Below, piece by piece: positions 4,792 through 47,764 of a stretch of 64,000 nucleotides of DNA. Under the pieces are notes generated by a model. That model worked only from the letters and a program-made list of their open reading frames with translations. It had not been told where the DNA came from and searched no databases. The DNA comes from PVC group bacterium. Its GTDB lineage: Bacteria; Omnitrophota; Gorgyraeia; B26-G9. A program made the position numbers and the translations under genes. Each line of letters begins with the position of its first letter. Within the stretch, counting starts at the first letter, position 1. The DNA is taken from positions 420,593 through 484,592 of the forward strand of contig JAAEQR010000142.1 in the NCBI GenBank assembly GCA_024231215.1. The letters run 5' to 3'.

Positions 4792-5586
4792 TTACGCTTT
4801 TTTCAGAAACTCAATTCCATTTTTAAAAATTTCAAAACCATCCGGGATCCCCGCATTTTCTCCTCTTGTCCAACGCGGATGCTGGGTTTTAAAAACACAA
4901 CGTTCAGGATGAGGCATCAAGCCAAATATACGTCCAGTCGCATCACAAATCCCGGCTATATGTTCAACCGACCCGTTCGGATTATCCGGATAAACTGACA
5001 ATCCTCCTTCTTTATCGCAATATTGAAAAACAATTTGTCCATTATCCATTAGGCGTTTTAGTATCGTCTTATTCTTAGCTATGAATTTACCTTCGCCATG
5101 AGCAACCGGCATACAAATCACTTCATCTATCCCTTTAGTCCACACACACTTACTGATTTGGGATTTCCGAAGATGTACCCAGCGGTCTTCAAATTTACCG
5201 GAATCATTGCAAGCCAAAGTTACTTCCTGCTGCCATTGTTTATTCCCGGGAAGCAACCCTGTTTTCACCAGTACTTGAAAACCATTACAAATACCAATCA
5301 TTAATCCGTTTTTACGCAAAAATCTCTGCAGCTCATCCTGCAATTTCATTTTGAGTTCGTTCGCCAAAATCATACCCGCGGCAATATCATCCCCATAGGT
5401 AAATCCTCCGGGAAAAGCAATGATTTGATGTTCAGAGATCATCTTTTTATTTTTTACTAATTCATTAACATGAACTAGTTTTACTTTTGCGCCTAATAAT
5501 TCGAAGGCAATTTTAGTTTCCGCATCACAGTTTGTACCTGCGGTACGAATAATTAAAACATTTATCTTATTTCTGCTTACCGTCAT
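4792..5586 (-). CDS. purQ: FGAM synthase, glutamine amidotransferase subunit
   Basis: Class-I GATase motifs GICNGFQVL and HPER. Track ORF extends to 5634, but the internal start MTVSRNKINVLIIR (ATG at 5584-5586) gives a typical PurQ length and only a small overlap with the upstream gene. Confidence 0.85.
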   Translation of the reverse strand: MTVSRNKINVLIIRTAGTNCDAETKIAFELLGAKVKLVHVNELVKNKKMISEHQIIAFPGGFTYGDDIAAGMILANELKMKLQDELQRFLRKNGLMIGICNGFQVLVKTGLLPGNKQWQQEVTLACNDSGKFEDRWVHLRKSQISKCVWTKGIDEVICMPVAHGEGKFIAKNKTILKRLMDNGQIVFQYCDKEGGLSVYPDNPNGSVEHIAGICDATGRIFGLMPHPERCVFKTQHPRWTRGENAGIPDGFEIFKNGIEFLKKA

Positions 5587-7543
5587 ATAAAACAACCTTA
5601 TTCCTTCCTTCTTCCTTGGCCAGACATAACGCATTTTCCGAACACCTCAAGAATCCCTCTGGCGAAAAATCCTTGCTCACACCGTCGAAATAAGCAACCC
5701 CGATACTAACCGTCACTCCTAAGATTTTACCCTCATGTCCCATTTTAAAATCTTCTACACTCTTTCTTAATCTTTCAGCAACAATCATCGTATCATCAAT
5801 ATGCTTTCTGATAATTTCGCCCGGCCCCTGAGTAGACTCTTCCTGCCTTGTTTCCGGCAAAATAACTGCAAATTGTTCGCCACTATAACGAGCCAGGACA
5901 TCAACATTTCTTAATTTATTTTTTAGGAGTAATCCAATATTTTTTAAGATCAAATCTCCCACCTGATGCCCGTACATATTATCGAATTCTTTAAACCTGT
6001 CAACATCAACCATTAATAAGGATATTGGGTGTCCATATCGTTTACACCGGGCAATTTCCTCTCCCAGCCGCATCAAAAAATAATTATAGTTAAAAACCTT
6101 TGTTATTCCGTCAATAATCGCTTCGCTATATAATCGTGCGTTTTCAATCGCCGCGGAAGCTTCAGCCGCAAAAGATTCAAGGGCATTAATATCATCCTGT
6201 GTATATATACCATCCTGCTTCCTGCCCCCCAAAATAATACTGCCCACCAGCTTATCTTTAATAATCAAAGGGATAACAACTTCAGCATTAAACACATTAA
6301 TTTTTTCAAACACCTTCTCAACTTCAACAATATCTTCTGACTGCTTACATTCTTCTTTAACCAAAATACCCTGCGTATTTTCTAAACGCCTCAATAATGC
6401 GTCATTGGATTCAAGTATCAAATCTTCCTGAATTTCTTTACTTATACCATAAGACGCCTTAATCACTGCGCCCTGCCCCTCTTCATCCTCTAAAAACACT
6501 GCCGCCTTATCTACATCAAACGTTTGAACAATTATCTGAACAATATAATTAAGCAATTGGTCCATGTCCATTATAGAACTCAGCTGCCCGGAAAGATTTA
6601 AGAGAATATTCTGGTAATCATATCTTCCTTTAAACACAATCTTGTTTGAGAGTTTCCTTGCTTTCTTTTTATAGGGAGAAAACATTATTATCGAAATAAT
6701 AATAACCGAAGATATTGCTACAGCCGAGAACGCATCTACCAGTAATAAAAACAAGCGCACAAAAACAAGGTGCAAAAAAACCAGCGGGAGCACTGAAAGT
6801 CCGATTAAAGTCAAACGATGCAGCATTATATCAAATGTCAATAACCGATAATTTACAATAGAATAAGCAATCAATATCCCGGCAATAGTTAAAAACACTA
6901 CACTGCCTTGATATACCACAACTCCCGCAGCAGACAAAAAACTCATAAGTAATGCCAGAACACTCAGCGCAATACTAAAGATAATTAGATTGCTTTGTTT
7001 TCTAGTTAATGAGGATAATGGCACTTGTTTGCTATGAATCAGGCACATAACCACACCCAACGGCAAAAATAACCCTGTATTTAAAAGAAATAAAAAATAT
7101 GGGACATTTGTCAAAGAAATTGTTCTCGCCCAGGGAAAAAGAACGAATTTTATTTCACAAAAACCGCCCCAGAAGCAAACAGATGCAGCTCCTAAAAGAC
7201 AGGAAACTGTAAAAAGAAAATTCAAAAGCCCTGTTCTTCCTTTGTTTACACATAAAAGCAAATAAAACAAAGCTGGCACCACCAAAGATGCCCCCGTCAA
7301 AAAGATTTTTGTCCAAAGCAAAAGAGTATTCGGCTGTTCTTTAAACTGAATAAACCCGAAAGATAGCAGACAATAACAAAAAATCGTCAAAGAAACAGGA
7401 AGATAAGGACGAGTCAAATAAGACTTCTCCCTTTTCATCAAAACAAAAACACCTGTCCCCAAAGTAACCAGGGCACAAACAAATGAGATAAAAGAATAGA
7501 TATTCATAGTCAAGAAAACTACCAGCGCAATGGCTTTTGCCAA
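5567..7543 (-). CDS. Integral membrane sensor: multi-TM N-terminal region + GAF domain + degenerate GGDEF domain (I-site RxxD retained, A-site SGEQF)
   Basis: 658 aa. About 8 predicted TM helices in the first 300 aa. GAF-like middle region. C-terminal GGDEF fold with RNVD-VLARY-SGEQF in place of RxxD-x5-GG(D/E)EF. Sits between purL and purQ. Confidence 0.75.
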   Translation of the reverse strand: MAKAIALVVFLTMNIYSFISFVCALVTLGTGVFVLMKREKSYLTRPYLPVSLTIFCYCLLSFGFIQFKEQPNTLLLWTKIFLTGASLVVPALFYLLLCVNKGRTGLLNFLFTVSCLLGAASVCFWGGFCEIKFVLFPWARTISLTNVPYFLFLLNTGLFLPLGVVMCLIHSKQVPLSSLTRKQSNLIIFSIALSVLALLMSFLSAAGVVVYQGSVVFLTIAGILIAYSIVNYRLLTFDIMLHRLTLIGLSVLPLVFLHLVFVRLFLLLVDAFSAVAISSVIIISIIMFSPYKKKARKLSNKIVFKGRYDYQNILLNLSGQLSSIMDMDQLLNYIVQIIVQTFDVDKAAVFLEDEEGQGAVIKASYGISKEIQEDLILESNDALLRRLENTQGILVKEECKQSEDIVEVEKVFEKINVFNAEVVIPLIIKDKLVGSIILGGRKQDGIYTQDDINALESFAAEASAAIENARLYSEAIIDGITKVFNYNYFLMRLGEEIARCKRYGHPISLLMVDVDRFKEFDNMYGHQVGDLILKNIGLLLKNKLRNVDVLARYSGEQFAVILPETRQEESTQGPGEIIRKHIDDTMIVAERLRKSVEDFKMGHEGKILGVTVSIGVAYFDGVSKDFSPEGFLRCSENALCLAKEEGRNKVVLYDGKQK

Positions 7544-10431
7544 GCTTCTTTTAATTTTTCAACAGGGCAGTCGATTACCACTGTCCCGTTGGTACCTATC
7601 ACCCTGAATTTGCGTTCATCTTTTAGCTGCCCAATCAAGGAATACGGCACACCTTTAAGTGTCTGTTCAAACATCTTCTGCTTACGCGGTTCGACTTCTA
7701 CAACAAACCGGCTATTTGATTCTGAAAACAACAGCGTTTCGCTACTTAAATCTTTTTTATCAATCGCATGTTTCAGCCCGGATAAACAAACCTCCATACC
7801 CAAGCCTCCGGAAAATGCCATCTCAGCCATTGCAACTGCTAATCCTCCGTCGGAACAATCATGACACGACCGGACAAGTCCTTTGTTAACCGCACTGCTT
7901 AAATTTTCAAATATTTTAAGACTGTTTTTAAAATTAACTTTTGGCACATCCGGACTTGATAATCCGTTTACTGCGCAATAACTACTTCCGCCCATTTCAT
8001 CATAGGTAGTACCGATCACATATATAGCATTACCCGGGGCCTTAGCATCAGAAGATATTACTTTTTCAACATTCTCAACTACGCCCATAGCCGAGATCAA
8101 TAATGTCGGAGGAATAGACATCTTTTTACCCCCTACAGTAAACTCATTATTCAAACTGTCTTTGCCGGAAATAAATGGTATCTTATAAGCTAAAGAAGCA
8201 TCTTTACATCCCAAACACGCTCTAACCAGTTCGCCTAAGCCGGCCGGCTTAGAAGTATTTCCCCAACTGAAATTATCAAGCAAAGAAACCTTATTCAGAT
8301 TCCCTCCCACACTAATCACCTGCCGCAATGTTTCTTCAATACAAGAAACCGCCATCCAATAAGGATCAATGTCTCCATACCTTGAATTAATTCCACAGGA
8401 AACTACAATTCCTTTTTTTGATCCGGCTTTTGGTTTAATAACTGCTGCATCTTGAGGCCCGTCATTATTAACTCCACCTAAAGGTTTTAAAACACTCATT
8501 CCCTGCACCTCATGATCATACTGGCGGATTATCCATTCTTTACTGCAAACATTCAAATCTCCTAACACTTTCAGTAAACTAGAATTAAGATTTCTTGTCT
8601 TAGGCATTACTGATTTTTTAATTTTAGGTTTTTTCCAAATAGCCTTTCTTACTGTATCAGGAACTCCCTTATGTAAAAAATGCATATCCAAATCACAAAC
8701 TTTTGTTCCTTCATAAAAAAGCTCAAGATGATTAGTATTAGTAAATGTTCCGATAACGGTAGCTTCCACATTCTCCCGAGCAAAAAGATCTAATAGCTTC
8801 TTCAGCTTTGATTTTGGAACACTGATAACCATTCTTTCCTGAGCCTCGGAAATCCAAATCTCTTCATATGATAAACCGCTATATTTAAGAGGAACTTTTT
8901 CCAGGTCAACCCGCGCTCCGGTATCTTCGCCCATTTCACCTACCGCGCTGGAAAGCCCACCGGCGCCGCAATCAGTCACTGCAGTATACAAACCTTTATC
9001 CCGGGCCTGCAATAACGTATCTAAAACTTTTTTCTCAGTAATAGCATTACCGATCTGTACCGCACCGCTGGAAACAGTTTCCGACTCATGAGTTAGTTCT
9101 ATTGAAGAAAAAGTTGCTCCATGAATACCGTCCCGGCCGGTTCTGCCGCCGACAACTACAATATATTCATCAGAACTAACTTTTTTAAATGAGTGTTCTT
9201 TGGGTAGTATTCCTACTGTTCCGCAATATACAAGAGGATTTGAGGTATATCTTTCATCAAAAATAACCGAACCATTAGATGTTGGAATTCCCATCCGGTT
9301 GCCATAATCCCGAACCCCGGAAACTACGCCTTTCATAACTCTTTTAGGATGAAGCGCTCCCCTCGGCACTTTACTTACCGCAAGCTTAGGAGGCCCAAAA
9401 CAAAAAACATCTGTATTCATAATCGGCTTTGCCCCCAATCCCACACCCAAAATATCACGAATTACTCCGCCGATACCTGTTCCGGCTCCTCCATAAGGCT
9501 CAAGGGCTGAAGGATGGTTATGAGTTTCTACCTTAAAGCAAATATTATCGTCTTTATCAAAAGTGATGATTCCTGCATTATCTTTAAAAACAGAAATACA
9601 CCATTTTTTATTCAGCTTTTTGGTTGCCCCCATAATCGTCGATTTTAAAAGATTTTTAAAATTAGTAGTCTTTTTTGTTTCAGTATCTGTATATTTTATA
9701 TTTGCTTTAAGAGTTTTATGGCAGCAATGCTCTGACCAAGTCTGAGCCAGGGTTTCAAGTTCGCAATGATCAGGATTTCTTTTAAGCTTTTTAAAATAAT
9801 TCTGGATTATCTGCATTTCTTCTAAGGTCAGCGACAATTGCATCTGTTTACTTAATGCAATAAGTTTTCGGTCGAAAAGGTTAAGAAGGTCAACCGTGTT
9901 TTTTTTAAACTCGTAATTAACCTCTTTGTGAGCAATTAGAGTTTTTTTTAAATGCTCAACTTCAACAACATGCTGAATAACCTTATTATACAGCAGTTTT
10001 TCACTGATAAGAGAAAGTTGTTTTGCAAAAAGTCTGCCGTTAATCAAATACCGACGACCGGTCTTAATACTGTGCACCCCTTGAACATTTAAGTCCCGAA
10101 TCCCCTTTTTAGTACTTTCCTCCCATGGATCCATAACTCCGGGGTTATATGCAGTCTCAACTACGAAAAAATTTTTTTTCTTCTTAACTCTGAATTTTTT
10201 ATCTTCCAGTAATCCAAACTCATATTCCTGAATCACCCGGTCCGATAAAAGCTGGCCGCTTATTAGTTCTACCTGTTGTTTAGTAATATCTCCCTCTAAG
10301 ATATAGACCTGTATCATCTTAACGTCACTAACAGTATCAATGCCCAGATCAATAATATCCCGCTTTATACCCTGACCAACAGGATCCATCACCTGTGGTT
10401 TATTTTTAACCTCTATACGCCAAAACATCAT
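7519..10431 (-). CDS. purL: Phosphoribosylformylglycinamidine synthase, PurS-PurL fusion
   Basis: 970 aa. N-terminal ~80 aa resemble PurS (MMFWRIEVKNKPQVMDPVGQGIKRDIIDLGI). The rest is PurL with AIRS domains. ATGATG start at 10426-10431. Confidence 0.9.
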   Translation of the reverse strand: MMFWRIEVKNKPQVMDPVGQGIKRDIIDLGIDTVSDVKMIQVYILEGDITKQQVELISGQLLSDRVIQEYEFGLLEDKKFRVKKKKNFFVVETAYNPGVMDPWEESTKKGIRDLNVQGVHSIKTGRRYLINGRLFAKQLSLISEKLLYNKVIQHVVEVEHLKKTLIAHKEVNYEFKKNTVDLLNLFDRKLIALSKQMQLSLTLEEMQIIQNYFKKLKRNPDHCELETLAQTWSEHCCHKTLKANIKYTDTETKKTTNFKNLLKSTIMGATKKLNKKWCISVFKDNAGIITFDKDDNICFKVETHNHPSALEPYGGAGTGIGGVIRDILGVGLGAKPIMNTDVFCFGPPKLAVSKVPRGALHPKRVMKGVVSGVRDYGNRMGIPTSNGSVIFDERYTSNPLVYCGTVGILPKEHSFKKVSSDEYIVVVGGRTGRDGIHGATFSSIELTHESETVSSGAVQIGNAITEKKVLDTLLQARDKGLYTAVTDCGAGGLSSAVGEMGEDTGARVDLEKVPLKYSGLSYEEIWISEAQERMVISVPKSKLKKLLDLFARENVEATVIGTFTNTNHLELFYEGTKVCDLDMHFLHKGVPDTVRKAIWKKPKIKKSVMPKTRNLNSSLLKVLGDLNVCSKEWIIRQYDHEVQGMSVLKPLGGVNNDGPQDAAVIKPKAGSKKGIVVSCGINSRYGDIDPYWMAVSCIEETLRQVISVGGNLNKVSLLDNFSWGNTSKPAGLGELVRACLGCKDASLAYKIPFISGKDSLNNEFTVGGKKMSIPPTLLISAMGVVENVEKVISSDAKAPGNAIYVIGTTYDEMGGSSYCAVNGLSSPDVPKVNFKNSLKIFENLSSAVNKGLVRSCHDCSDGGLAVAMAEMAFSGGLGMEVCLSGLKHAIDKKDLSSETLLFSESNSRFVVEVEPRKQKMFEQTLKGVPYSLIGQLKDERKFRVIGTNGTVVIDCPVEKLKEAWQKPLRW

Positions 10432-10493: not shown

Positions 10494-11786
10494 TTAAATG
10501 CCTACACGCTTAAATATTGTTTCGATATTGCGCAGTACATATTTCAGATCAAAACAGCGATCTAATTCTTTTTGGCTAAAAACTTTCTTAACATCTTCGT
10601 CTTTCCCCAGAAGCTCTTTAAAATCAATTCCTTTTTCCCAGACCTTAAGCGCATTCCTTTGCACTACCTGATAAGCCTTTTCCCGTGACAACCCTTTCTC
10701 TATCAAAGCAATTAAAAGCCTTTGTGAAAACATGAGACCTTTTGTCTTGTTTAAATTATTCATCATGTTTTTCGGATAGACGATCAGCTTATCAGCTAAT
10801 TCCGTAAAAAGAGTCAACATATAATCAAGTACTATCGAAGAGTCCGGGATAATCACCCTTTCTACTGAAGAATGAGAAATATCTCTTTCATGCCACAAAG
10901 CTATATTTTCCATAGCTGCTAATGCATTGCCTCTTAGTATTCTGGCCATCCCGGAAATCCGCTCACAAGTAATGGGATTACGCTTATGCGGCATAGCAGA
11001 AGATCCTTTCTGCCCTTTTGAAAAATATTCTTCCACCTCTAAAATTTCCGTGTGCTGTAAATTCCTGATCTCTGTAGTGAATTTTTCCAAACTCGAACCG
11101 ATAATCGCTAATGTATTCATATATTGAGCATGACGATCACGCTGTACAACCTGACTAGCTACCGGCTCAACAGCTAATCCAAGTTTTTTCAAAACCATTC
11201 GCTCAACCCTAGGATCGATATTTGAATATGTCCCGACAGCACCGGAAAGTTTACCCACACATATATTCTTCTTGGCCTGTTCTAAGCGCTCCAGATTACG
11301 TTTTGTTTCTTCATACCAGAGAGCGAGTTTCAAACCAAAAGTTATCGGCTCAGCATGTACATTATGAGACCGGCCGGCCATCGGTGTGTATTTATGCTTT
11401 TTAGCCTTTTTCTTCAGCACTTTCAATAACGCTTTTAAATCTGCAATTAATATATCCAACGCATCTTTAAACTGTAATGCTGCCCCTGTATCTATAGCAT
11501 CATTGGAAGTCAATCCCATATGAATAAAGCGGGAATCAGGACCTACGTTTTCGGCAATACTGGTAAGAAAAGCAATAATATCATGTTTTGTCTTCTTTTC
11601 GATCTGCTTTATTCGTTTGATATCAAATTTAGCTCGTTTTTTTATGTTTTTCAGGGAAGATGCTGGAATTTTACCCAGTTTTGCCCAAGCCTCACAAACA
11701 GCAACCTCGACATCCAGCATTTTCTGCCATTTAGCCTGCTCTTCCCAAACCTTTCCCATCTTTTCCAAAGTATACCTTTTAATCAT
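10494..11786 (-). CDS. purB: Adenylosuccinate lyase
   Basis: 430 aa. Fumarase/ASL family with the GSSAMPHKRNP signature. Confidence 0.9.
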   Translation of the reverse strand: MIKRYTLEKMGKVWEEQAKWQKMLDVEVAVCEAWAKLGKIPASSLKNIKKRAKFDIKRIKQIEKKTKHDIIAFLTSIAENVGPDSRFIHMGLTSNDAIDTGAALQFKDALDILIADLKALLKVLKKKAKKHKYTPMAGRSHNVHAEPITFGLKLALWYEETKRNLERLEQAKKNICVGKLSGAVGTYSNIDPRVERMVLKKLGLAVEPVASQVVQRDRHAQYMNTLAIIGSSLEKFTTEIRNLQHTEILEVEEYFSKGQKGSSAMPHKRNPITCERISGMARILRGNALAAMENIALWHERDISHSSVERVIIPDSSIVLDYMLTLFTELADKLIVYPKNMMNNLNKTKGLMFSQRLLIALIEKGLSREKAYQVVQRNALKVWEKGIDFKELLGKDEDVKKVFSQKELDRCFDLKYVLRNIETIFKRVGI

Positions 11787-11810: not shown

Positions 11811-11839
11811 ATAATAACAAATTATTCAGGTTACGTCAA
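11811..11839 (-). promoter_or_regulatory. Candidate sigma70-type promoter for purB (and the downstream pur genes)
   Basis: On the minus strand: TTGACG (plus 11834-11839), 17-nt spacer, TATTAT (plus 11811-11816), about 25 nt upstream of the purB ATG. Found by eye only. Confidence 0.3.
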
Positions 11840-11901: not shown

Positions 11902-12750
11902 TCAGAACGTAATCATGTCTGCAGATTGTAACGGAAAAGTAATCGTAAAACTGGTTCCTTTGCCCTCTTCACTAGCAACACCAACCGTACCTTTATGCTG
12001 CTCAACAACACGATAAACAATCGACAACCCCATGCCCATCCCCTTATCAGGAGACTTTGTTGTATAAAATGGATTGAAAACATTCTCTAACTTATCTGGA
12101 GAAATACCGCATCCGGTATCTTCAAATTTAACAACAATATTTTTTCCATTCTCGCTCAATTCCGTATTTACTCGAAGTTCTCCACCTTCAGAAGAATCCA
12201 AGCTTTCAATCGCATCTTTGGCATTGTTGATCAAGTTTAAAAATACCTGTTCTAATTGATGGACATCACCCCCTAATTCAGGTAGATTATTATCGAGTTT
12301 TGCGATTAAACGAATATTTTTCTTTTGCAATTCTTTTTCTAGAAGCGATAAAGAATCTTCAAGCGACCGATTAATATCTAATTTTTTAATATTTGACTTA
12401 GAACTTCCGGCAAAAAAACGAACACTTTTAATAATTCTGTCCATCCTATCCGCTTCCTGGATAATCTTAGCTACATCATCCCGCAGCGGACTATCTGTTT
12501 CCAAATCCATAAATACTGCCTGGGCAAAACCTCTAACCCCGGTTAAAGGCTGATTTAACTCATGCGAAATCCCTGCTGCCAGCTGTCCGATTGCGATCAT
12601 TTTATTTGACTGAACAAGTTCTTCCTGCGCTTCTTCAAAATTCTGAACTTTCCGATATTTCGCCTCTAAAAACTCCATTTCCGCAAGATTACTACGTAAA
12701 ACTTTTACTTCCTCAATTAGCTGTTCTTTAGTTTTATCTCGATCTTCCAC
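11902..12750 (-). CDS. Cytoplasmic sensor histidine kinase (HisKA + HATPase_c), orphan (no adjacent response regulator)
   Basis: 282 aa. Coiled-coil N-terminus, H-box ISHELNQPL, G-boxes DTGCGI and GMGMGLSIV, no TM segment. Confidence 0.75.
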   Translation of the reverse strand: MEDRDKTKEQLIEEVKVLRSNLAEMEFLEAKYRKVQNFEEAQEELVQSNKMIAIGQLAAGISHELNQPLTGVRGFAQAVFMDLETDSPLRDDVAKIIQEADRMDRIIKSVRFFAGSSKSNIKKLDINRSLEDSLSLLEKELQKKNIRLIAKLDNNLPELGGDVHQLEQVFLNLINNAKDAIESLDSSEGGELRVNTELSENGKNIVVKFEDTGCGISPDKLENVFNPFYTTKSPDKGMGMGLSIVYRVVEQHKGTVGVASEEGKGTSFTITFPLQSADMITF

Positions 12751-13461: not shown

Positions 13462-13968
13462 TTACAACTTATATTTAATCTGCCTCAGCAAATCCTTACG
13501 ACACTTAATATCTTCTTCCTGTTCTATGCCTTTTGGCTTATCGCCGTCTACTACTCCGAGAATCCCTCTTCTGCCCCCTCTATCTGCAACAACCACTTCT
13601 AAAGAATTAGCTGTAGCACAAAATATATTACAGACTTCCGGTACGTTTTTCAGGACACCCAAAACATTAATTGGATAAGCCTCACGCATAAAAATAATAA
13701 AAGAATGTCCGGCACTTATTTTGAAAGCATTATCTATCGCTGCCTTTTTCAATTCTTCATCATTTCCCTCATAACGAACAAGACATTTTCCAGATGCTTC
13801 GCAAAACGCAACCCCAAATTTTATATTTGGCACAGTATTTACCAAAGCCTCGTAAATGTCTTCTACTGTTTTAATGAAATGTGCCTGTCCGATAATCACG
13901 TTAGCATCTTTAGGAGTATTAACGTGAATATTTCGCATATCCATACATTCCCTCCAATATTTAAGCAA
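13462..13968 (-). CDS. Conserved hypothetical protein, possibly adenosine-specific-kinase-like (PF04008) family
   Basis: 168 aa. IIGQAHFIKTVEDIYEAL resembles what I recall of PF04008. Start overlaps the ntpK stop by 8 nt, so it is translationally coupled to the V-ATPase operon. Confidence 0.5.
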   Translation of the reverse strand: MLKYWRECMDMRNIHVNTPKDANVIIGQAHFIKTVEDIYEALVNTVPNIKFGVAFCEASGKCLVRYEGNDEELKKAAIDNAFKISAGHSFIIFMREAYPINVLGVLKNVPEVCNIFCATANSLEVVVADRGGRRGILGVVDGDKPKGIEQEEDIKCRKDLLRQIKYKL

Positions 13969-14489: not shown

Positions 14490-14517
14490 CTATCAGCCAT
14501 CAGCTATGAGCCATGAG
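14490..14517. repeat. Heptanucleotide tandem mini-array (4 x CYATSAG) overlapping the ntpI stop, upstream of ntpK
   Basis: ctatcag ccatcag ctatgag ccatgag. A weaker TNNATGT-period block lies at 14425-14452, next to the ntpK RBS. Confidence 0.5.
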
Positions 14518-16285
14518 CTTTTTTGAACGGACTATATGCCCTTCCTCCACCTTCAAAACCAGCATTTTTATAAAATTCCACAAACGTTAAACGCAACGGA
14601 TGCACAAAACTCGAAAGCGCTCCTAAAGCAAAATTCAAACTATGTAAAACAACTAATAATATTAGTGTCAGAAAAAAACCGATTATCGGAATATCTTTAC
14701 ATTGTAATGCAATACTATTAAAGACAAAGCCCAGTATTGTGCTTGAGATTCCCAACGCAAAGAGCCGCACATAGCTTAAAATATCACCTAAGAACCCGGT
14801 CAAACCTCCGTATAATTCCCAAAGCCCCTTACCGATTCTCACAAAAATATTAGCTTTTAGATCATTAAATAACAAAATTAATACTAGCCCGATTAATGCT
14901 ATCCATTGGGCCCATTGAGGCGATGAATTTTTCCCCAAATATGCAAGAACTAATGGCAATACGCCGGTAAGCATCAGCATCCAACCCCAAGTTGATAAAC
15001 TTTCCATCAAACCGAATTGACGTATCTTTCCGATCGCTTTTAGCAGTAGGCCGAAAAATATTTGCACAACTCCTATTTTAAGCGATAAATAAAAAAGCTG
15101 ATTCGAATTTAACAAGACCATTTCTTCAAAAAACTCGATATTCACAAGCTCGATTCCAAACAAGTTACCGCAAATAATCCCGAACAAAAAAGTAGAAACT
15201 CCAAAAATTGATCCTAAGATTAAAAATGGTTTTTTATCACAAGATACCTTTTTCCAAAATATTGCACAAATAAATAAAATGATCAATCCATAACCAGCAT
15301 CAGCTAAACAAAACCCGAAAAACAAAGTAAAAAACGGAGCAAAAAACGCCGTTAAATCCATCTCCATATATTGCGGCAAAGCAAACATTTTAGTTATCGG
15401 CTCAAACAAACGTGCAAAACGATTGTTCTTAAGTAAAACCGGGATCATTTCACCTTTTTGAGGATCGGAAGCTTCAAAATACACTTCTTTTTTCTCCAGA
15501 AACTTCTCAACTTTTTCCATAAGTTTTCGCGGCACCCAGCCGTTCAATATATATATATTTCCTTCTACCGCTGAGCCCAGCCCCTGGCTAACCGCAAGAT
15601 ATGCTCGTTCAGTATGTAAAGTATTCCAAAATTCGCAAACCTCATCAGTATACGCAAACAATCCGTCCCTCTGTTTTAGCTTTTGGCTTTTTTGAACTTC
15701 CAAATCCGCTAATTCAGCTTCCAGTTTTTGTTTATCTGTATGTGGGTAAAAAAACTCATCACAGTCCAGCTCTATTTTCTCCTCTTTTTCCAAAACAACA
15801 AAGTAGACATATGTCTTATCCCGGGATATCTCCTCATAACATATATCCTTACTAGCGCATACTTCAAATTTCTTTATCGGGGTAATGAAAAACCTCATAT
15901 TAACCCCTGCTTGTTTTAATTTTTCCACATATTCAATATCAAAATCACCCCAGGGAGCTAAATTACGCAACTCTCTGGATATCTGTTCATGCCGCTCCTG
16001 CATATGCCGCAATTCTTCGCGGATCCCCTCGTAGGACTCCACGTACGAAAAAACATCACCCTGTTTTTCAGAAGAGACATCTGCTTCTTTTTTATTCTTA
16101 CGCGCAATTTTTAAAAATGACTCGCAACGTTCAATCTGTTTCTCGCGATCTTCCAAATCTTCATTTTTTAGTTCTTTTTTTTCTAAGCTTATATGCACTA
16201 CTCCTAAATCCTGCAACGCAAATAAAAAATCATCTTTATCTTTATGAAAAATTAAAGCTGTGAGTTTTTTCATCGGGACAATCAT
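14504..16285 (-). CDS. ntpI: V-type ATPase subunit I (membrane a-subunit)
   Basis: 593 aa. Cytoplasmic coiled-coil N-terminal half, multi-TM C-terminal half with a conserved Arg-containing helix. Confidence 0.85.
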   Translation of the reverse strand: MIVPMKKLTALIFHKDKDDFLFALQDLGVVHISLEKKELKNEDLEDREKQIERCESFLKIARKNKKEADVSSEKQGDVFSYVESYEGIREELRHMQERHEQISRELRNLAPWGDFDIEYVEKLKQAGVNMRFFITPIKKFEVCASKDICYEEISRDKTYVYFVVLEKEEKIELDCDEFFYPHTDKQKLEAELADLEVQKSQKLKQRDGLFAYTDEVCEFWNTLHTERAYLAVSQGLGSAVEGNIYILNGWVPRKLMEKVEKFLEKKEVYFEASDPQKGEMIPVLLKNNRFARLFEPITKMFALPQYMEMDLTAFFAPFFTLFFGFCLADAGYGLIILFICAIFWKKVSCDKKPFLILGSIFGVSTFLFGIICGNLFGIELVNIEFFEEMVLLNSNQLFYLSLKIGVVQIFFGLLLKAIGKIRQFGLMESLSTWGWMLMLTGVLPLVLAYLGKNSSPQWAQWIALIGLVLILLFNDLKANIFVRIGKGLWELYGGLTGFLGDILSYVRLFALGISSTILGFVFNSIALQCKDIPIIGFFLTLILLVVLHSLNFALGALSSFVHPLRLTFVEFYKNAGFEGGGRAYSPFKKAHGS

Positions 16286-16872
16286 ACTGTCGCTGCCTCC
16301 ATTCGACGTTTTAATACTTTCTGGGAAGATTTGGAAAGATTATCTTCATCTTCCAAGTATCGCTTGATCTTACGAATAGTCTCTTCAAAAAAAGGTATCT
16401 GTACTTTTTCATACAAATTCACCTTTTGAGTAGTTTTGCGCCGGGCATATTCAACACTTTTTAAAATTTTTTCTTCGGTTAAATGTTCTACTTTTAATCT
16501 GATTACTTCTTTTATCTCCTCTCTGCCCCGTAATACCCAGGCAGGATAAGCAAATAAACTAAAAGACCCCGGGGGGAAAATCACTTCCTTTATAACTTTC
16601 ACCTTAATACTGGCAATTTTTTTGTCGACAAGATCTACTTTTTCCAGCCTTACCAAATCTGGAAATTCGCTCCATAACCGTTTCATCCCAGCCAGAGATT
16701 CTATCTTTGCCTGGACTTTTTTATCTAATTCTTTAATCCTAGCCCGAATCCGCTTTGTCTCAGCTCGTAAAGCAGCTTCTTTGCTTTGCAATACGGGAAG
16801 CGCATTCATGCGAATCTTCAAATCCCTATTTATCTGAATCAATGTAATTTTATTATATTGTATCTGCGCCAT
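16282..16872 (-). CDS. ntpD: V-type ATPase subunit D
   Basis: 196 aa. MAQIQYNKITLIQINRDLKIRMNALPVLQ is a typical subunit D N-terminus. 4-nt overlap with ntpI. Confidence 0.85.
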   Translation of the reverse strand: MAQIQYNKITLIQINRDLKIRMNALPVLQSKEAALRAETKRIRARIKELDKKVQAKIESLAGMKRLWSEFPDLVRLEKVDLVDKKIASIKVKVIKEVIFPPGSFSLFAYPAWVLRGREEIKEVIRLKVEHLTEEKILKSVEYARRKTTQKVNLYEKVQIPFFEETIRKIKRYLEDEDNLSKSSQKVLKRRMEAATV

Positions 16873-16923
16873 AATAATTTATACCAATTAAGAATTAATT
16901 TTTTATCTTTTTTTGTCTTACTA

Positions 16924-16944
16924 CTTACAGCTTATAGCTTACGG
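16924..16944. repeat. Heptanucleotide tandem mini-array (3 x CTTAYRG) overlapping the ntpB stop, upstream of ntpD
   Basis: cttacag cttatag cttacgg. Same motif family as the array at 58053-58087. Confidence 0.5.
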
Positions 16945-18270
16945 CTGCTTTTTCGGCCAGTATTTCTTAGTTATTTCTTCTTTAATTCCAACTTCTTCTT
17001 TCTTAAAATACGCCCCGAACAGCTTCCAGGAAGTATCAAGCATCTGATCAATTTCAACATTCACATCAATCGCTAATAATTCACGCGCATAATTTAATGC
17101 AAACTTCAGACATCGTTCATCATAATCGCTTAAATCAAATCCGTTTTCCTGTTTTGTTTTAGCGTTTGCCGCGTCCGCATAAAGACGTACACCCGCGTTC
17201 ATCACTTGAGGATGGTCTTCCCGACTGCGCTTACCAATAACCAACTGTTTCAAACGGGAAAGACTGCGGAACGGATCAACTATAACTTTGGAGATATCCG
17301 TATTGCGGCGTAAAAACAACTGACCTTCGGTGATATAGCCGGTGTTATCCGGGATAGCATGCGTAATATCACCGCCGCTTAAAGTCGTTACCGCGATAAT
17401 TGTAATTGATCCCTTTTCAAACTGCACTGCCTTTTCATATATTTTAGCCAGATCACTATAGAGTGATCCCGGCATACTATCTTTAGACGGGATTTGATCC
17501 ATACGATTGGATACAATGCTTAATGCATCACAAAACAAAGTCATATCCGTTAACAATACAAGAACATTCTCATTTTTCTCTACAGCAAAATATTCAGCCG
17601 CAGTAAGCGCCATATCCGGGATAAGCAGACGTTCAACCGGCGGATCATCTGTGGTATTAATAAAACACGAGATCTTTTCTAATACTCCGGCATCTTCAAA
17701 TACACGACGATAATACAGATAATCATCATTTGATAATCCCATACCACCTAATATAATTCTATCTGCTCCAGCACGTAAAGCTACATTGGCCATAACCTGA
17801 TTATACGGTTGATCCGAATCAGCAAAAAAAGGGATTTTCTGTCCGGTAACCAAAGTATTATTCAAATCAATTCCGGCAATACCGGTAGTAATCAATTCTG
17901 AAGGCTGCTGCCGACGTACCGGATTAACACTTGGGCCTCCAATAGCTGTTTTTACACCTTCTAACTCCGGACCTCCGTCAATCGGCTGACCATAAGCATT
18001 AAAAAATCTTCCAGAGAGATCAGAGCCTATTTTTAAAGTCGGCGGCTCTTTTAAAAATATAACATCCACATCATTTCCAATCCCCTGTGTCCCGGAAAAT
18101 ACCTGTAAGGTAACCAAGTCTCCCTGAATTTTCACTACCTGCGCCGGACGACCGTCAATTAAAGCCATCTCCTCGTTCATTACATCCTGAGCCCGTAAAG
18201 AACACGTTGCCTTAGTAATCTGTTCTATCTTTGTATATACTGTAGCAAAAGCTGAAGCCTGCCTCTTCAT
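16939..18270 (-). CDS. ntpB: V-type ATPase subunit B
   Basis: 443 aa. Non-catalytic nucleotide-binding subunit with F1-alpha/beta-like core. Confidence 0.9.
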   Translation of the reverse strand: MKRQASAFATVYTKIEQITKATCSLRAQDVMNEEMALIDGRPAQVVKIQGDLVTLQVFSGTQGIGNDVDVIFLKEPPTLKIGSDLSGRFFNAYGQPIDGGPELEGVKTAIGGPSVNPVRRQQPSELITTGIAGIDLNNTLVTGQKIPFFADSDQPYNQVMANVALRAGADRIILGGMGLSNDDYLYYRRVFEDAGVLEKISCFINTTDDPPVERLLIPDMALTAAEYFAVEKNENVLVLLTDMTLFCDALSIVSNRMDQIPSKDSMPGSLYSDLAKIYEKAVQFEKGSITIIAVTTLSGGDITHAIPDNTGYITEGQLFLRRNTDISKVIVDPFRSLSRLKQLVIGKRSREDHPQVMNAGVRLYADAANAKTKQENGFDLSDYDERCLKFALNYARELLAIDVNVEIDQMLDTSWKLFGAYFKKEEVGIKEEITKKYWPKKQP

Positions 18271-18281
18271 AATATTACTCC

Positions 18282-20048
18282 TTAATTCTTATCATTAATA
18301 ACTCTCTCCATTAATGTACTTTGTAGTTCATCTTCAAATTTCTTAAACTCGTTATTTTGAAACTCAGAAAAATTCATCTGTTTTATAAGATTTATAAGCT
18401 TCTTGAAATATGGGGCAACATCTATAAAATTGTCAAAATCAAAATCATCTTTACATATATTATGGATAATATCCATCATATAGCGCTGTCTCTCCATAGA
18501 AGTAACTTTATCTACCGGATCAAACGCATCCTGCTGCAAAAATCCAAAATCTATCAATTCCGATTTCCAGTAAGCTTCGTGGTAGTCCGTAGGCACACTA
18601 TCATCACCCAAAATATTGATCTGGTCATAAGCTTCTTTTCCACGCAGCAAAATATCTCTTATAAACAACACCTTTTCCACCCAATGCGGTTCCAAATGTT
18701 TTTGCATGTATTCCTGAACTTCTTGATATTCAAGATACTTTGAATAGCTTTCAATTGTATCAATCGCCGGATATCTTCGGCTGTCTGCTCTTTTCTGAGC
18801 CAGAGCATAAAAACAACGTGCAACTTTTTTGGTTGATTCGGTAACCGGTTCTTTCAAATTACCTCCAGCCGGGCTAACCGTACCAATAAATGTAATCGAA
18901 CCTTTTTCTCCGTTATGCAATTCTACTAATCCGGATCGAGAATAAAAATTAGCAATAATTGCCGATAAATCCATCGGGAAAGCATCCGGCCCGGGCAGTT
19001 CTTCCATCCGATTGGACATCTCCCTTAAAGCTTGTGCCCAACGAGAAGTAGAATCAGCTAAAAGCAGTACTTTCAGGCCCATTTGCCGGTAATATTCACC
19101 AATTGTCATTGCCGTGTATACAGATGCTTCACGTGCTGCTACCGGCATATTTGAGGTATTACAAATAATGATTGTCCGTTCAATAAGTTTTCGGCCCGTA
19201 CGAGGATCATCTAATTCCGGATATTCTTTAAATATTTCTACCACTTCGTTTGCACGCTCCCCACAAGCACAAATAATTACCAAATCCACCTGAGCATTTG
19301 CAGCAATAATATGCTGCAATACTGTCTTCCCACAGCCAAATGGACCGGGAATAAATCCGGTCCCGCCTTCTACAATCGGATTGATTGTATCAATCAAGCG
19401 CACACCTGTTTCTAACGGCTTAAATGCAATCGGTTTATTCGCATATACTTTCACCGGAACTTTCACGGGTAATCGCTGAGACATTTGTATTTGCTGAGTC
19501 TTTCCGTCTGAGTTTTTTAGCACAGCAATCGTATCTTTGGTAGTATACTTACCTTTGGATTTCAGTGATTCTATTTCCCATAATCCGTCCAGTAAAAATG
19601 GAACCATTATTTTATGGTCGATCCAGTTTTCCTTTACCTGCCCAATCCAGTCCCCGGCCTGCACACGATCGCCAGGCTTGGCGATTGGTTCAAAATCCCA
19701 TTTTGTCTCATACGAAAAAGCCGGGGGCATCTCCCCCCTTTTCAGAAAAACTCCGGTCATTGCTTCTAGATCACTCTGTAATCCATCGTATCTTTTAGAT
19801 AATAGTCCCGGGCCAACCTCAACCTCAAGCATATGCTCGGTAAATTCAACCGGAGCACCCATTTTTAATCCACGAGTACTTTCAAATACCTGGGTAAATA
19901 CTTTTTGTCCATCGATCTTAATTACTTCGCCCTGGATATTTATATTATCCAACGTAATATGACATATTTCATTTTGACTTACCGGGCCATCCACCTCGAT
20001 AGTTACCAGGTTTGATACTACGCCAATTACTTTTCCTTTAGTCGCCAT
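18282..20048 (-). CDS. ntpA: V-type ATPase catalytic subunit A
   Basis: 588 aa. P-loop GPFGCGKTVLQ plus the non-homologous insert typical of A subunits. Confidence 0.9.
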   Translation of the reverse strand: MATKGKVIGVVSNLVTIEVDGPVSQNEICHITLDNINIQGEVIKIDGQKVFTQVFESTRGLKMGAPVEFTEHMLEVEVGPGLLSKRYDGLQSDLEAMTGVFLKRGEMPPAFSYETKWDFEPIAKPGDRVQAGDWIGQVKENWIDHKIMVPFLLDGLWEIESLKSKGKYTTKDTIAVLKNSDGKTQQIQMSQRLPVKVPVKVYANKPIAFKPLETGVRLIDTINPIVEGGTGFIPGPFGCGKTVLQHIIAANAQVDLVIICACGERANEVVEIFKEYPELDDPRTGRKLIERTIIICNTSNMPVAAREASVYTAMTIGEYYRQMGLKVLLLADSTSRWAQALREMSNRMEELPGPDAFPMDLSAIIANFYSRSGLVELHNGEKGSITFIGTVSPAGGNLKEPVTESTKKVARCFYALAQKRADSRRYPAIDTIESYSKYLEYQEVQEYMQKHLEPHWVEKVLFIRDILLRGKEAYDQINILGDDSVPTDYHEAYWKSELIDFGFLQQDAFDPVDKVTSMERQRYMMDIIHNICKDDFDFDNFIDVAPYFKKLINLIKQMNFSEFQNNEFKKFEDELQSTLMERVINDKN

Positions 20049-44878: not shown

Positions 44879-46606
44879 TTACACGTATCCTGTCGTTGCG
44901 TGTGTTAATTCCTGTAACGTTGTTTTACCGGAAAAAACTTTAAGCAGTCCATCTTCCCGTAATGTCAACATCCCATTCTTTATTGCCTGAGTTCTTAGTT
45001 CAGATATAGATGCCTTATCCAAAATTAACGAACGAATATCCTCATCAAAAATCAAGAGTTCAAAAACACCAATTCTGCCCTTATACCCAGCACCTTCACA
45101 TTGTTTGCATCCTTTGCCCTTATAAAAAACTTTACCCTTGATATCCTGAGGTTTAAGCTTTACTTCCTCCAATTCTTTTTCCGTAGGAAGATATTCCGCC
45201 TTGCAATTCGGACAAATAACCCTAACCAAACGCTGTGCTAATATCGCCTCTACGGCTGAAGCGATCAAGAACGGCTCTACACCCATATCAATAAGACGCG
45301 TAATCGCACTAGGTGCATCATTAGTATGCAATGTTGAAAATACAAAATGCCCGGTAAGCGCAGCATGTATTGCCATTTGCACAGTTTCCGCATCACGGAT
45401 TTCCCCGACCATAATAATATCAGGATCTTGTCTTAAAATATGCCTTAAAACCACAGGGAAAGTCAAATTTATTTTTGGACGCACAGAAACCTGAACTAAC
45501 CCGGGCAGATCAAATTCTACCGGATCCTCTACTGTAATAATTTTCTGCTCTATGTTATTTATAGAACTTAAAGCTGAATACTGTGTCGTTGTTTTCCCGC
45601 AACCAGTCGGCCCGGTGCTTAAAATTATACCATAAGGTTTTTTAATCAACGATTTAATCTTCATCTGGATATCTTTTTCAAAGCCCAAGTCATCTAAAGA
45701 AAGCTGAACCGTAGTTTTATCCAGAATCCGGATGACCACACTTTCACCAAAGATTGTCGGAAGCGCCGAAACTCGCAAATCAACCATCCTCCCTCCAATT
45801 TTAACAAAAATCCTGCCATCCTGAGGAAGTCTGGTTTCAGCTATGTTTAAATTTGCCATGACCTTAATTCTGGAAGTAATCGCTAGATGTAAAGCTGTCG
45901 GAGGAGAAACCACATCGTAAAGAACTCCGTCTAAACGATATCTGATCTTAAATTCATCCTGAAACGGCTCAAAGTGGATATCCGACGCCTTCTTCTTTAT
46001 AGCCTGGATAAGAATAATATTGATAAGCTTGATAATCGGAAGCTGCGACGCCAACTCTTCGATATTTTCAATCTTTTCATCGCCATCGATTAAATCAGGA
46101 ATTTTTTCACTAATCTCTGAAAAAATTTCATCAACACTATCGGATTCTCTTCCGTAATATTTCTTGATCGCTTTGGTAATACTAGTCAGGGTTGCTGCTT
46201 TTCCTTTTATATTGCAGTTAAGCATAAATCGCAAGTCATCAAAAATACTAAAATTCAACGGCTCTGAAGTAGCAATTACAAGCGTATTATTTTCAATACC
46301 AATCGGCAGTATACTATATAGTTTGGCAATAGAACCGGGAATCCGCTCAAGCACTTCTTTAGGGATTTGCAAACGACCCAATTCAACCGTTTCCATCTTT
46401 GCCTGCACACCCAATGCTTTTAAAAGATCTTTTTCCGTAATATATCCAAGATTGACTAGAACACGCCCGAGTGGAAGTCCTGTCATATTCTGACTTTCCA
46501 GCCCTTCCTTTAACTCATCTTCAGTTATAAGACCGCGTTCTTTTAAAATTGATCCTATTGTTTTAAATCTAAATCCTACTTTCATAATCTCCAATTTGAG
46601 TGACAA
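44879..46606 (-). CDS. pilB: Type IV pilus extension ATPase PilB with N-terminal MshEN-type (c-di-GMP-binding) domain
   Basis: Walker A GPTGCGKTTT. Tetracysteine CPNCK...CKQCEGAGYKGR. Two MshEN 24-mer motifs (IGSILKERGLITEDELKEGLESQ and LGRVLVNLGYITEKDLLKALGVQ). Probable start MKVGFRF at 46585 with a GGAG RBS. Confidence 0.85.
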   Translation of the reverse strand: MSLKLEIMKVGFRFKTIGSILKERGLITEDELKEGLESQNMTGLPLGRVLVNLGYITEKDLLKALGVQAKMETVELGRLQIPKEVLERIPGSIAKLYSILPIGIENNTLVIATSEPLNFSIFDDLRFMLNCNIKGKAATLTSITKAIKKYYGRESDSVDEIFSEISEKIPDLIDGDEKIENIEELASQLPIIKLINIILIQAIKKKASDIHFEPFQDEFKIRYRLDGVLYDVVSPPTALHLAITSRIKVMANLNIAETRLPQDGRIFVKIGGRMVDLRVSALPTIFGESVVIRILDKTTVQLSLDDLGFEKDIQMKIKSLIKKPYGIILSTGPTGCGKTTTQYSALSSINNIEQKIITVEDPVEFDLPGLVQVSVRPKINLTFPVVLRHILRQDPDIIMVGEIRDAETVQMAIHAALTGHFVFSTLHTNDAPSAITRLIDMGVEPFLIASAVEAILAQRLVRVICPNCKAEYLPTEKELEEVKLKPQDIKGKVFYKGKGCKQCEGAGYKGRIGVFELLIFDEDIRSLILDKASISELRTQAIKNGMLTLREDGLLKVFSGKTTLQELTHATTGYV

Positions 46607-46696: not shown

Positions 46697-47764
46697 TTAT
46701 ACGCCTTCCTGTATTTTTCTCTGCATCATGTCCTGATCAAACGCCTTGGCAACCGCATCTTCCTGCCGAATATGCCCGGCCGAATACAAATCAAACAAAG
46801 AGTTATCAAATGGTTTCATACCATATTTAGCCCCAGTCTGTAAATCAGATGTGATTCTAAATGTCTTCTTCTCCCGAATAAGGTTTTGAATTGAAGGAGT
46901 ACTAACCATTATTTCAAACGCAGCCACACGCCCCCTGCCTGTAGAACGCACAATCAACTGCTGTGATACTATGGCAAGAATTGAGGTAGACAACTGCGTC
47001 CTTATCTGCTCCTGCTGATTCGGAGGAAATACATCAATTATTCTGTCTACTGTAGCCGCAGCACTGGTTGTATGCAAAGTCGCTAAAACTAAATGTCCGG
47101 TCTCCGCTGCTAATATTGCTGCTTCAATCGTGGTCAAGTCTCTCATTTCTCCAACGAGAATAAGGTCTGGATCCTGCCGAAGACCTCTTACCAGCCCTTC
47201 ACTAAAACTAGGCACATCTATGCCGATTTCGCGTTGTGTAACAATACCCTTTTTATGAGTGTGATAATATTCTACCGGATCTTCAATCGTAATTATATGA
47301 CAATCCCTCTCTGTATTTACAAAGTCGGTCATTGTCGCTAACGTTGTCGTTTTTCCGCTGCCAGTCGGGCCGGTAACCAAAATAAGTCCACGCGGCCGAT
47401 ATAATAAATCCCTAATTATTTTAGGCAATCCGATTTCGTCAAATGTTAATAAGCGAGTAGGAATTAAACGCAAGGTCAATCCATAATGCCCTTTTTGTTT
47501 GTAAACAGATACTCGAAAACGCGCTATTTTTTCAAAAGCAAAACCAAAATCAACACCCCCTATTTCCTGAACCCGCCGTTGATTTTCAGTACTGGTGATA
47601 GATTTCATGAGCTGTTCAGTATCCTCATGCTTCAACGGGTCATAGTTCATGGACATCAGCGCCCCGTCAATTCTCAAAGTCGGAGGCTTCCCTACTGTAA
47701 TATGTAAATCAGAAGCATTATGATTCACACAAAGCTGCAAAAGTTCCCCTATATCAACTGACAT
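46697..47764 (-). CDS. pilT: Twitching motility (retraction) ATPase PilT
   Basis: 355 aa. Walker A GPTGSGKTTT. PilT-type C-terminus, no N-terminal GSPII domain. GGGGG RBS. Confidence 0.85.
   Translation of the reverse strand: MSVDIGELLQLCVNHNASDLHITVGKPPTLRIDGALMSMNYDPLKHEDTEQLMKSITSTENQRRVQEIGGVDFGFAFEKIARFRVSVYKQKGHYGLTLRLIPTRLLTFDEIGLPKIIRDLLYRPRGLILVTGPTGSGKTTTLATMTDFVNTERDCHIITIEDPVEYYHTHKKGIVTQREIGIDVPSFSEGLVRGLRQDPDLILVGEMRDLTTIEAAILAAETGHLVLATLHTTSAAATVDRIIDVFPPNQQEQIRTQLSTSILAIVSQQLIVRSTGRGRVAAFEIMVSTPSIQNLIREKKTFRITSDLQTGAKYGMKPFDNSLFDLYSAGHIRQEDAVAKAFDQDMMQRKIQEGV

Follow-up and report, generated by a model that had tools for sequence, protein, structure and literature searches.

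What is a gene for a membrane-bound GGDEF protein doing inside an operon for purine biosynthesis? The question is raised by a 64,000-nucleotide stretch of DNA, hereafter the window, from a PVC group bacterium of the phylum Omnitrophota (GTDB lineage Bacteria; Omnitrophota; Gorgyraeia; B26-G9; GenBank assembly GCA_024231215.1, contig JAAEQR010000142.1, positions 420,593 to 484,592). In it, an open reading frame (ORF) on the minus strand lies between purL, here fused to purS (purSL), and purQ, and its predicted product combines a transmembrane (TM) domain with a GAF domain and a GGDEF domain. With moderate confidence, we read this protein as a receptor for c-di-GMP (cyclic dimeric GMP) that arose from a product-inhibited diguanylate cyclase and is one of a family that is specific to Omnitrophota and has a fixed place between purSL and purQ. 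Judging from its sequence, the protein has most likely ceased to synthesise c-di-GMP, and it probably binds c-di-GMP at the inhibitory site (I-site) of the GGDEF domain.

Conservation of the gene between purSL and purQ

The gene and its immediate surroundings are as follows.

7519–10431, minus strand: purS-purL fusion encoding a subunit of formylglycinamidine ribonucleotide (FGAM) synthetase, upstream neighbour (TIGR01736, 640 bits)
7508–7518, minus strand: spacer of 11 nucleotides (nt) between the purSL stop (TAG 7519–7521) and ATG 7507
5567–7507, minus strand: TM-GAF-GGDEF protein, most probable coding sequence, 646 amino acids (aa) from ATG 7507
5567–5586, minus strand: 20 nt shared by the GGDEF gene, at its 3' end (TAA 5567–5569), and purQ, at its likely start (ATG 5584–5586)
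4792–5586, minus strand: purQ, encoding the glutaminase subunit of FGAM synthetase, downstream neighbour (Pfam/NCBIfam)

The ORF at 5567–7543 on the minus strand was confirmed and encodes 658 aa if read from TTG 7543; residue numbers throughout follow this ORF. A start at TTG 7543 would overlap purL by 25 nt. Three orthologues with spacers of 74–102 nt 3' of purSL have the conserved N-terminus MNIYSF, MSIYAF or MNIYAF, and because these N-termini map to ATG 7507, this codon is the likely start. The 658-aa product given in the initial annotation therefore corresponds to an existing ORF, but the likely product has 646 aa; similarly, of the overlaps that had been described with both neighbours, the one with purQ stands, while purL ends 11 nt before the likely start. 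The public NCBI call (P0001, 623 aa) begins at Met36 (window 7435–7438), and a start there would remove the first TM helix. The longest purQ ORF covers 4792–5634, and the likely purQ start is its M17, at ATG 5586. The resulting 20-nt overlap is a probable site of translational coupling. Upstream, PurS is fused to the N-terminus of PurL in a protein of 970 aa, in which Pfam gives two PurS stretches; this fusion is kept in all related loci examined.

A word-indexed search of 5.8 billion proteins returned just a handful of full-length relatives, to which an exhaustive search of 1.84 billion cluster representatives added others. The arrangement purSL-[TM-GAF-GGDEF]-purQ was found in nine loci including the window, with identities to the window protein down to 36%; the check proposed in the initial annotation, for the same insertion in related pur operons, was thus positive. 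The source names of these loci, where given, are Candidatus Omnitrophota or Omnitrophica. Their proteins and the signature motifs at the catalytic site (A-site) are listed below, with identities to the window protein.

Window: SGEQF
L001, P0002: 57% identity, GGGQF
L002, P0003: 48% identity, GGEEF
L003, P0004: 40% identity, GGEEF
L099/L100, P0122: 41% identity, SNKMF
L101, P0121 and a tandem second copy: 43% and 45% identity, GGEEF in both
L102, P0124: 38% identity, DKRTF
L103, P0125: 39% identity, STQRF
L104, P0126: 36% identity, SRYIF

The embedded protein is full length and free of frameshifts in all nine loci. At the purQ junction of the eight other loci, the two genes overlap in six (by 20, 4, 4, 14, 8 and 4 nt), abut in one and are separated by 13 nt in one. 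In most of these loci, PurSL and PurQ share 64–75% identity with their window counterparts, against 36–57% for the embedded protein. Since it diverges more than the flanking enzymes, it is a fast-evolving gene in a fixed slot. At protein identities of 57% or lower, its synonymous sites are saturated.

A scan of a genome collection with PurQ yielded 13 loci, among them one further Omnitrophota genome (L004). Its PurSL is 57.5% identical to that of the window, a similar distance, and its slot (8322–9005) holds a 227-aa LOG-family gene (PF03641, 1e-35). In two more distant genomes (L005 and L006), purL is directly followed by purQ and the slot is empty. The slot seems to accept accessory genes tied to nucleotide homeostasis. 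A metagenome scan with the orthologue alignment re-found L002 alone, the 79 other loci being unrelated GAF proteins without pur genes nearby.

Several of the loci have features of their own. L101 (112–4109) carries tandem TM-GAF-GGDEF paralogues of 647 and 659 aa, both with GGEEF and RNVD, directly upstream of purQ. In L003, a soluble 314-aa GGDEF protein with a dead A-site and an intact RxxD (RLTD...AGGGF) is encoded between purE and sua5 (16046–16990), in the same pur operon as the embedded copy with GGEEF; a pair of inserted methyltransferase genes separates purD from purE; and the 102 nt that separate purSL from the embedded gene contain a perfect 10-bp inverted repeat (TTACCTTTTC ... GAAAAGGTAA, 7935–7968) that is not followed by a T-run. 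In L004, a glycosyltransferase gene separates purB from purSL, and purF separates purQ from purM.

Conservation of the I-site and decay of the A-site

Between the DxD metal site and the end of the signature motif, the phmmer alignment of the window protein to PleD (1w25/2wb4) has no gaps. RNVD (545–548)-VLARY-SGEQF (554–558) aligns with RAID-LPCRY-GGEEF of PleD, placing RxxD five residues before the signature, and the register is equally ungapped against DosC and GcbC. Both the departure of SGEQF from GG(D/E)EF and the assignment of an intact RxxD at this spacing, as claimed in the initial annotation, are upheld by these alignments; the PleD string quoted there (RESD-VVARY-GGEEF) was wrong, but its register was right. 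The residues concerned are listed below, with their occurrence in the clade of pur-embedded proteins where counted.

6047–6049, minus strand: R499, the counterpart of R313 in PleD (secondary I-site arginine); present in all 15 clade members
5981–5983, minus strand: D521, in place of the guanine-binding Asn (PleD N335)
5900–5911, minus strand: primary I-site RNVD, R545 to D548, equivalent to PleD R359 to D362; 15 of 15 clade members
5870–5884, minus strand: degenerate A-site SGEQF, S554 to F558, equivalent to G368-G-E-E371-F of PleD
5771–5773, minus strand: R591, the counterpart of R390 in PleD (I-site arginine on helix alpha3); all 14 clade members covering the position

RxxD and both accessory arginines (the R390 and R313 equivalents) are thus in place. 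Further equivalences to PleD are D513 (D327), K518 (K332), D521 (N335), D530 (D344), and K643 and R647 (K442 and R446). At the A-site, the metal and phosphate ligands D513, K518, E556, K643 and R647 are present, but the signature has the changes G368S and E371Q, and in the guanine-binding pair N335 is replaced by D521, with D344 kept as D530. Three conserved positions are thus missing from the window protein, G368, E371 and N335 in PleD numbering, and the others are kept. Hydrogen bonds to the guanine base come from N335 and D344, D327 and E370 are Mg ligands, E371 and D327 have been assigned to metal coordination, and D327, N335 and D344 are reported as essential (PMC7288161; PMC7911125; bioRxiv 10.1101/2025.08.22.671821), N335 in PMC7288161.

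In a distance-based neighbour-joining tree with 100 bootstraps, the pur-embedded proteins were monophyletic in 100 of 100 replicates, and the window protein and P0002 grouped together in 100 of 100. The window protein belongs to this clade by placement as well as by its position between purSL and purQ. Inside the clade, bootstrap values for the backbone are low (21–68% on the relevant splits), and the independent A-site losses may number anywhere from one to three or more. Four of the 15 members have GGEEF with N335 and D344, and 11 have degenerate motifs, including SGEQF, GGGQF, SNKMF, DKRTF, STQRF and SRYIF. Positions 513, 518, 521, 530 and 554–557 vary across the 15 members. Ten residues are conserved in at least 93% of them (R499, R502, Y503, K541, R545, D548, R552, F558, A589 and R591), a set that contains all of the primary and secondary I-site residues of PleD; R499, R545, D548, R552, F558 and R591 are invariant. 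This decay of the A-site beside an invariant I-site fits the pattern expected of a switch from cyclase to c-di-GMP receptor, in agreement with the earlier suggestion that the motifs of the window protein are typical of such receptors.

Could the gene instead be a passenger with no relation to purines, its GGDEF domain a decaying relic and its function, if any, confined to the TM and GAF module? The operon would then be used for expression only, or the gene would be heading to loss. The divergence of the embedded protein beyond that of PurSL and PurQ would be in line with this, as would the LOG-family gene in the slot of a related Omnitrophota genome and the lack of any gene there in others. 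Against it, the protein is unbroken in all nine loci, the slot is kept down to 36% identity with a tight purQ junction, and GGDEF is the most conserved domain, with specific I-site residues invariant; between the window protein and P0002, for example, identity is 74% in the GGDEF domain and 49% in both the TM and GAF domains. We consider this explanation highly improbable.

Several points weigh against a c-di-GMP receptor at this locus. The A-site is just partly degenerate, with the equivalents of D327, K332, D344, G369, E370, K442 and R446 kept. Ser or Ala at the first motif position is tolerated in ECA3270 and VCA0965, and enzymes with SGDEF and AGDEF are active (PMC3974145). For RSp0334, synthesis of c-di-GMP from GTP was reported with an engineered LAARYGGEQF variant (PMC10667535). 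RxxD is conserved in active outgroup cyclases too, where it mediates mere product inhibition, and RgsP, with RxxD and GGDQF, did not bind c-di-GMP in the ligand assay DRaCALA (PMC6107284), so RxxD is insufficient for binding. Furthermore, no output domain or partner of the window protein was identified, and the conserved position of the gene is the sole basis for proposing a coupling of purine or GTP status to c-di-GMP.

The first three of these points would also suit a diguanylate cyclase that is still active and product-inhibited in spite of its non-canonical SGEQF motif, and whose c-di-GMP output would be proportional to expression of the pur operon, like that of the GGEEF orthologues. The syntenic proteins P0003, P0004, P0121 and the second copy in L101 indeed keep GGEEF, N335 and D344, and the retained A-site residues as well as the tolerated Ser and Gln substitutions cited above would be compatible with activity. 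In the window protein, however, E371Q, N335D and G368S coincide, one of them at a position reported as essential (N335; PMC7288161), and the GGDQF domain of RgsP lacks cyclase activity (PMC6107284). The closest relatives are more eroded still, having lost E370 and/or D327: P0002 has GGGQF and N335 replaced by D, and P0005 has TGGQF, N335 replaced by D and D327 by E. No SGEQF-type site is known to be active in a close homologue, the finding that by the initial annotation would have refuted its reading, and N335 is replaced by D in all three proteins. Because 11 of the 15 clade motifs are unrecognisable, selection on catalysis is clearly relaxed in the family. An active cyclase is therefore unlikely here. 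Two other synthases were also considered and rejected. Of L542, L545 and D548 of the 2',3'-c-di-GMP synthase RSp0334 (LLARLGGDQF), VLARYSGEQF has the first alone (PMC10667535), and a Hypr-type cyclic GMP-AMP synthase is contradicted by Asp, not Ser, at the D344 equivalent.

The half-degenerate A-site might also have been kept as a sensor of GTP or of guanosine tetra- and pentaphosphate, (p)ppGpp, that reports purine status, with the I-site secondary. GTP binding by a degenerate GGDEF domain has a precedent in Caulobacter PdeA, and the pur operon makes a guanine-nucleotide input attractive. Residues contacting phosphate and metal, and the D344 contact to guanine, are kept in the window protein, and (p)ppGpp and GTP share the PleD pocket (bioRxiv 10.1101/2025.08.22.671821). 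By contrast, N335, which hydrogen-bonds guanine and the alpha-phosphate, is lost (bioRxiv 10.1101/2025.08.22.671821), and D327, K332, N335 and D344 vary among the pur-embedded members, so that a family-level function cannot depend on them. We regard such a sensor as very unlikely, and prefer a receptor that binds c-di-GMP at the I-site.

Domain architecture and fold

The following domains were recognised in the protein.

6674–7507, minus strand: nine-helix membrane domain, residues 13–290 (hydropathy, Lys/Arg positions and AlphaFold2)
6572–6673, minus strand: juxtamembrane linker, residues 291–324, with KKKARK and the motif (F/Y)(R/K)G(R/K)YDYQ (clade conservation)
6140–6571, minus strand: GAF domain, residues 325–468 (Pfam GAF_3 1.7e-12, GAF_2 1.5e-10, GAF 8e-09; alpha/beta fold in AlphaFold2)
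5597–6121, minus strand: GGDEF domain, residues 475–649 (Pfam E=1.3e-33)

A Kyte-Doolittle scan and the AlphaFold2 model (mean predicted local distance difference test score 73) agree on nine TM helices between residues 15 and 288, and together with the Pfam matches to GAF and GGDEF they bear out the description of a polytopic membrane protein with these two domains. The modelled helices cover residues 15–37, 44–66, 71–100, 105–125, 147–171, 178–200, 213–230, 235–266 and 271–288. Lys/Arg-rich loops alternate along the sequence (37–45, 101–103, 172–182, 233–243 and 292–307), with the KKKARK cluster after the last helix. A topology with the N-terminus out and the C-terminus in is predicted, as read manually from the hydropathy scan and the Lys/Arg loops.

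The membrane domain resembles HisKA_7TM with two extra helices. The match to this family is weak in the window protein (PF16927, residues 21–236, 17.6 bits against a cut-off of 28.6), and HisKA_7TM is on record for the orthologue P0004 and the relatives P0006–P0010. In the pur-embedded clade, conservation of the linker residues G306, Y308, Y310 and Q311 reaches 93% or more, and the linker motif also retrieves 7TM-GAF histidine kinases. The module of nine TM helices, YDYQ linker and GAF domain occurs in histidine kinases, PP2C phosphatases and HD-GYP proteins as well; as it is common to several output types, it is a signal-input module.

In the AlphaFold2 model, a long helix (449–477) joins GAF to the GGDEF fold. 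Membership of the GGDEF superfamily is clear: the PF00990 match covers the whole profile (positions 1–161 of 161), and TIGR00254 scores 133 bits against a cut-off of 37.4. The top named NCBIfam model, DgcA (NF041606), scores 176.7 bits, below its equivalog cut-off of 370. A sequence search of the PDB found DosC, PleD and WspR at 1e-24 to 1e-17. Foldseek gave target-normalised TM-scores (template modelling scores) of 0.8–0.87 to isolated GGDEF domains; its top matches were GAF- or phytochrome-linked diguanylate cyclases (5llw, 6et7 and 4zmu) along with isolated GGDEF domains.

Operon context

The order of genes, all on the minus strand, is purB (10494–11786), purSL, the GGDEF gene, purQ, purM, purD and purE, followed by a Sua5/low-molecular-weight phosphatase fusion and rpiB. 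No terminator-like hairpin was present at either junction of the GGDEF gene, on the purSL side or on the purQ side. Promoter-like sites across the region numbered 49, compared with 39 ± 6 in shuffled sequence; this is no excess, and nothing at the junctions rose above background. A promoter or terminator of its own was accordingly rejected for the GGDEF gene, and together with the purQ overlap and the recurrence of the arrangement in nine loci, this sets aside the alternative raised in the initial annotation, that the gene is only incidentally adjacent. We infer that the gene shares a transcript with the pur genes, initiated upstream of purB at a promoter for which the best candidate is the following.

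11811–11839, minus strand: candidate operon promoter, TTGACG-17-TATTAT with a TG extension, identified by consensus match alone

No riboswitch for the pur operon was found by Rfam, whose sole match was one tRNA. Recent horizontal insertion of the GGDEF gene was rejected, its GC content of 0.35–0.39 being that of its neighbours, and a shift in AT skew at 6501–7500 is as expected from T-rich codons of the TM helices.

Other genes of the window were noted in passing. At 911–1969, a Sua5/YciO/YrdC domain is fused to a low-molecular-weight phosphotyrosine phosphatase and followed by rpiB; in L001, L002 and L103, as in the window, this fusion and rpiB are the last genes of the operon. Directly upstream of purB, a 282-aa histidine kinase (HisKA and HATPase, 11902–12750) without a sensor domain is encoded, which is not conserved in the orthologous loci, and further upstream lies a gene of the PF04008 'adenosine-specific kinase' family (13462–13968). 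A V/A-type ATPase operon (14504–20048) and genes for the alpha/beta and gamma subunits of an F-type ATP synthase (61551–63897) occur within the one window.

Proposed function

We propose that the ancestor of the window protein was a product-inhibited diguanylate cyclase with GGEEF and RxxD, and that catalysis decayed in the window lineage through G368S, E371Q and N335D. The present protein would be a dimeric inner-membrane sensor in which nine TM helices and a GAF domain are connected by the long signalling helix to the GGDEF domain. Its retained I-site (R499, R545, D548 and R591) would bind c-di-GMP made by other cyclases, so that it would serve as a receptor or 'trigger' protein whose conformation is set jointly by c-di-GMP and by the signal perceived at the TM and GAF module. 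With cyclase output gone, the GGDEF domain would have to act through ligand-dependent conformation or through partners. The gene would be transcribed with the pur operon from the promoter upstream of purB, and the overlap of its last codons with the start of purQ would tie its synthesis to that of FGAM synthetase.

The organism itself uses c-di-GMP, because a PilZ effector is present: the window encodes, at 59312–61483, a 723-aa MshEN-T2SSE ATPase of the type found in type II secretion and type IV pilus systems, with a C-terminal PilZ domain that has the canonical RRVFER and NISAGG motifs. The three MshEN ATPases that had been thought to be touched by the same signalling do exist (44879–46606, 47882–49567 and 59312–61483), but only the last has PilZ, and at 37–54 kb they lie too far off for linkage. 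The first two are PilB-like, with pilT between them (46697–47764), and the PilB at 44879–46606 has tandem MshEN-like 24-residue motifs without the leading Arg. No other GGDEF gene is present within the window.

Whether the output concerns purines is a separate matter. By analogy with receptors encoded beside their targets, FGAM synthetase or purine flux could be the output target, although we think this quite unlikely. A regulator of de novo purine synthesis gated by c-di-GMP and by the TM/GAF signal, which would bind or tether PurSL and PurQ, is equally doubtful. In such a regulator, a messenger derived from GTP would feed back on the pathway that makes its precursor, and the tight overlap with purQ would set the stoichiometry and place the nascent enzyme at the membrane.

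Relatives outside the clade

The relatives examined outside the pur-embedded clade (P0130, P0011 and P0007) are not in pur operons. P0130, with 33% identity and GGEEF, adjoins pheT. P0011 (L097, 985–4685) is a TM-GAF-GGDEF protein with an intact GGDEF motif, encoded 5 nt downstream of a sulfite-reductase gene in a cluster for sulfate assimilation with cysN/cysD-like and phosphoadenosine phosphosulfate (PAPS) reductase genes; it is a second case of a sensor cyclase joined to a biosynthetic operon. P0007–P0010 (L098, 154–2400) are 7TM-GAF proteins with a dead GGDEF motif (GEKEF, GENGF and similar), in which RxxD and the R390 equivalent are intact. Although more distant, they show the pattern expected of a change from cyclase to receptor as well. 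They carry a C-terminal winged-helix domain of the OmpR type (PF00486), lie outside pur operons, and are candidates for transcription factors that are anchored in the membrane and respond to c-di-GMP.

Relation to known systems and significance

The best matches in both sequence and fold are the cyclases PleD, WspR and DosC, which share the I-site register and in which R313, R359, D362 and R390 all have counterparts in the window protein; the syntenic GGEEF orthologues are probably product-inhibited cyclases of this type. The window protein differs from them in lacking G368, E371 and N335, and in its input of nine TM helices and GAF instead of receiver or globin domains. GAF-GGDEF cyclases (PA2771 DcsBis, DgcA NF041606 and the phytochrome-linked IsPadC) have the same order of GAF, signalling helix and GGDEF, but are soluble and catalytically competent. 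PrsK-like 7TM-GAF histidine kinases (HisKA_7TM, TIGR02916), many of which were among the search matches, have a homologous membrane domain, the YDYQ linker and GAF (TIGR02916 49 bits, residues 212–471), followed by a HisKA/HATPase output in place of GGDEF.

The same logic and cytoplasmic architecture are seen in PelD, the c-di-GMP receptor for Pel polysaccharide production in Pseudomonas aeruginosa. It is anchored in the membrane by four TM helices, has a GAF and a degenerate GGDEF domain, uses RxxD together with a further Arg to bind c-di-GMP, and is encoded inside the operon it controls. The window protein differs in its nine TM helices, in its pur instead of pel operon, with pur genes as neighbours and not pelA–G, and in a GGDEF domain close to the active cyclases PleD and DosC. 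Homology to PelD was rejected, since PelD chains were missing both from the PDB sequence search, taken to E≤10, and from the top 50 Foldseek matches. RgsP of Sinorhizobium meliloti (7TMR-PAS-GGDEF-EAL) is likewise polytopic, and its RxxD is intact while the fourth motif position is Gln (GGDQF), but it has an active EAL output, and its GGDEF domain neither made nor bound c-di-GMP (PMC6107284), which cautions against taking the motifs by themselves as proof of a receptor.

Degenerate GGDEF receptors are thus already known. What appears to be new is a lineage-specific family of receptors and cyclases with a new and conserved metabolic association; in the literature on GGDEF genes in pur operons and on c-di-GMP in Omnitrophota, we found no description of this arrangement. 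YdaK, PopA and SgmT, like PelD, are degenerate GGDEF receptors with defined roles; the four govern polysaccharide secretion, cell cycle or development, and are often encoded beside their targets. The links between nucleotide synthesis and c-di-GMP known so far are indirect, via nucleotide pools. If position marks the target in this case too, the family would represent the first wiring of c-di-GMP directly to purine biosynthesis, the source of its precursor GTP. Within one orthologous setting, the family moreover covers all stages between an intact and a fully eroded A-site, a natural series that is useful for studying how cyclases become receptors, and it provides an initial entry point to c-di-GMP signalling in the Omnitrophota, an uncultivated phylum.

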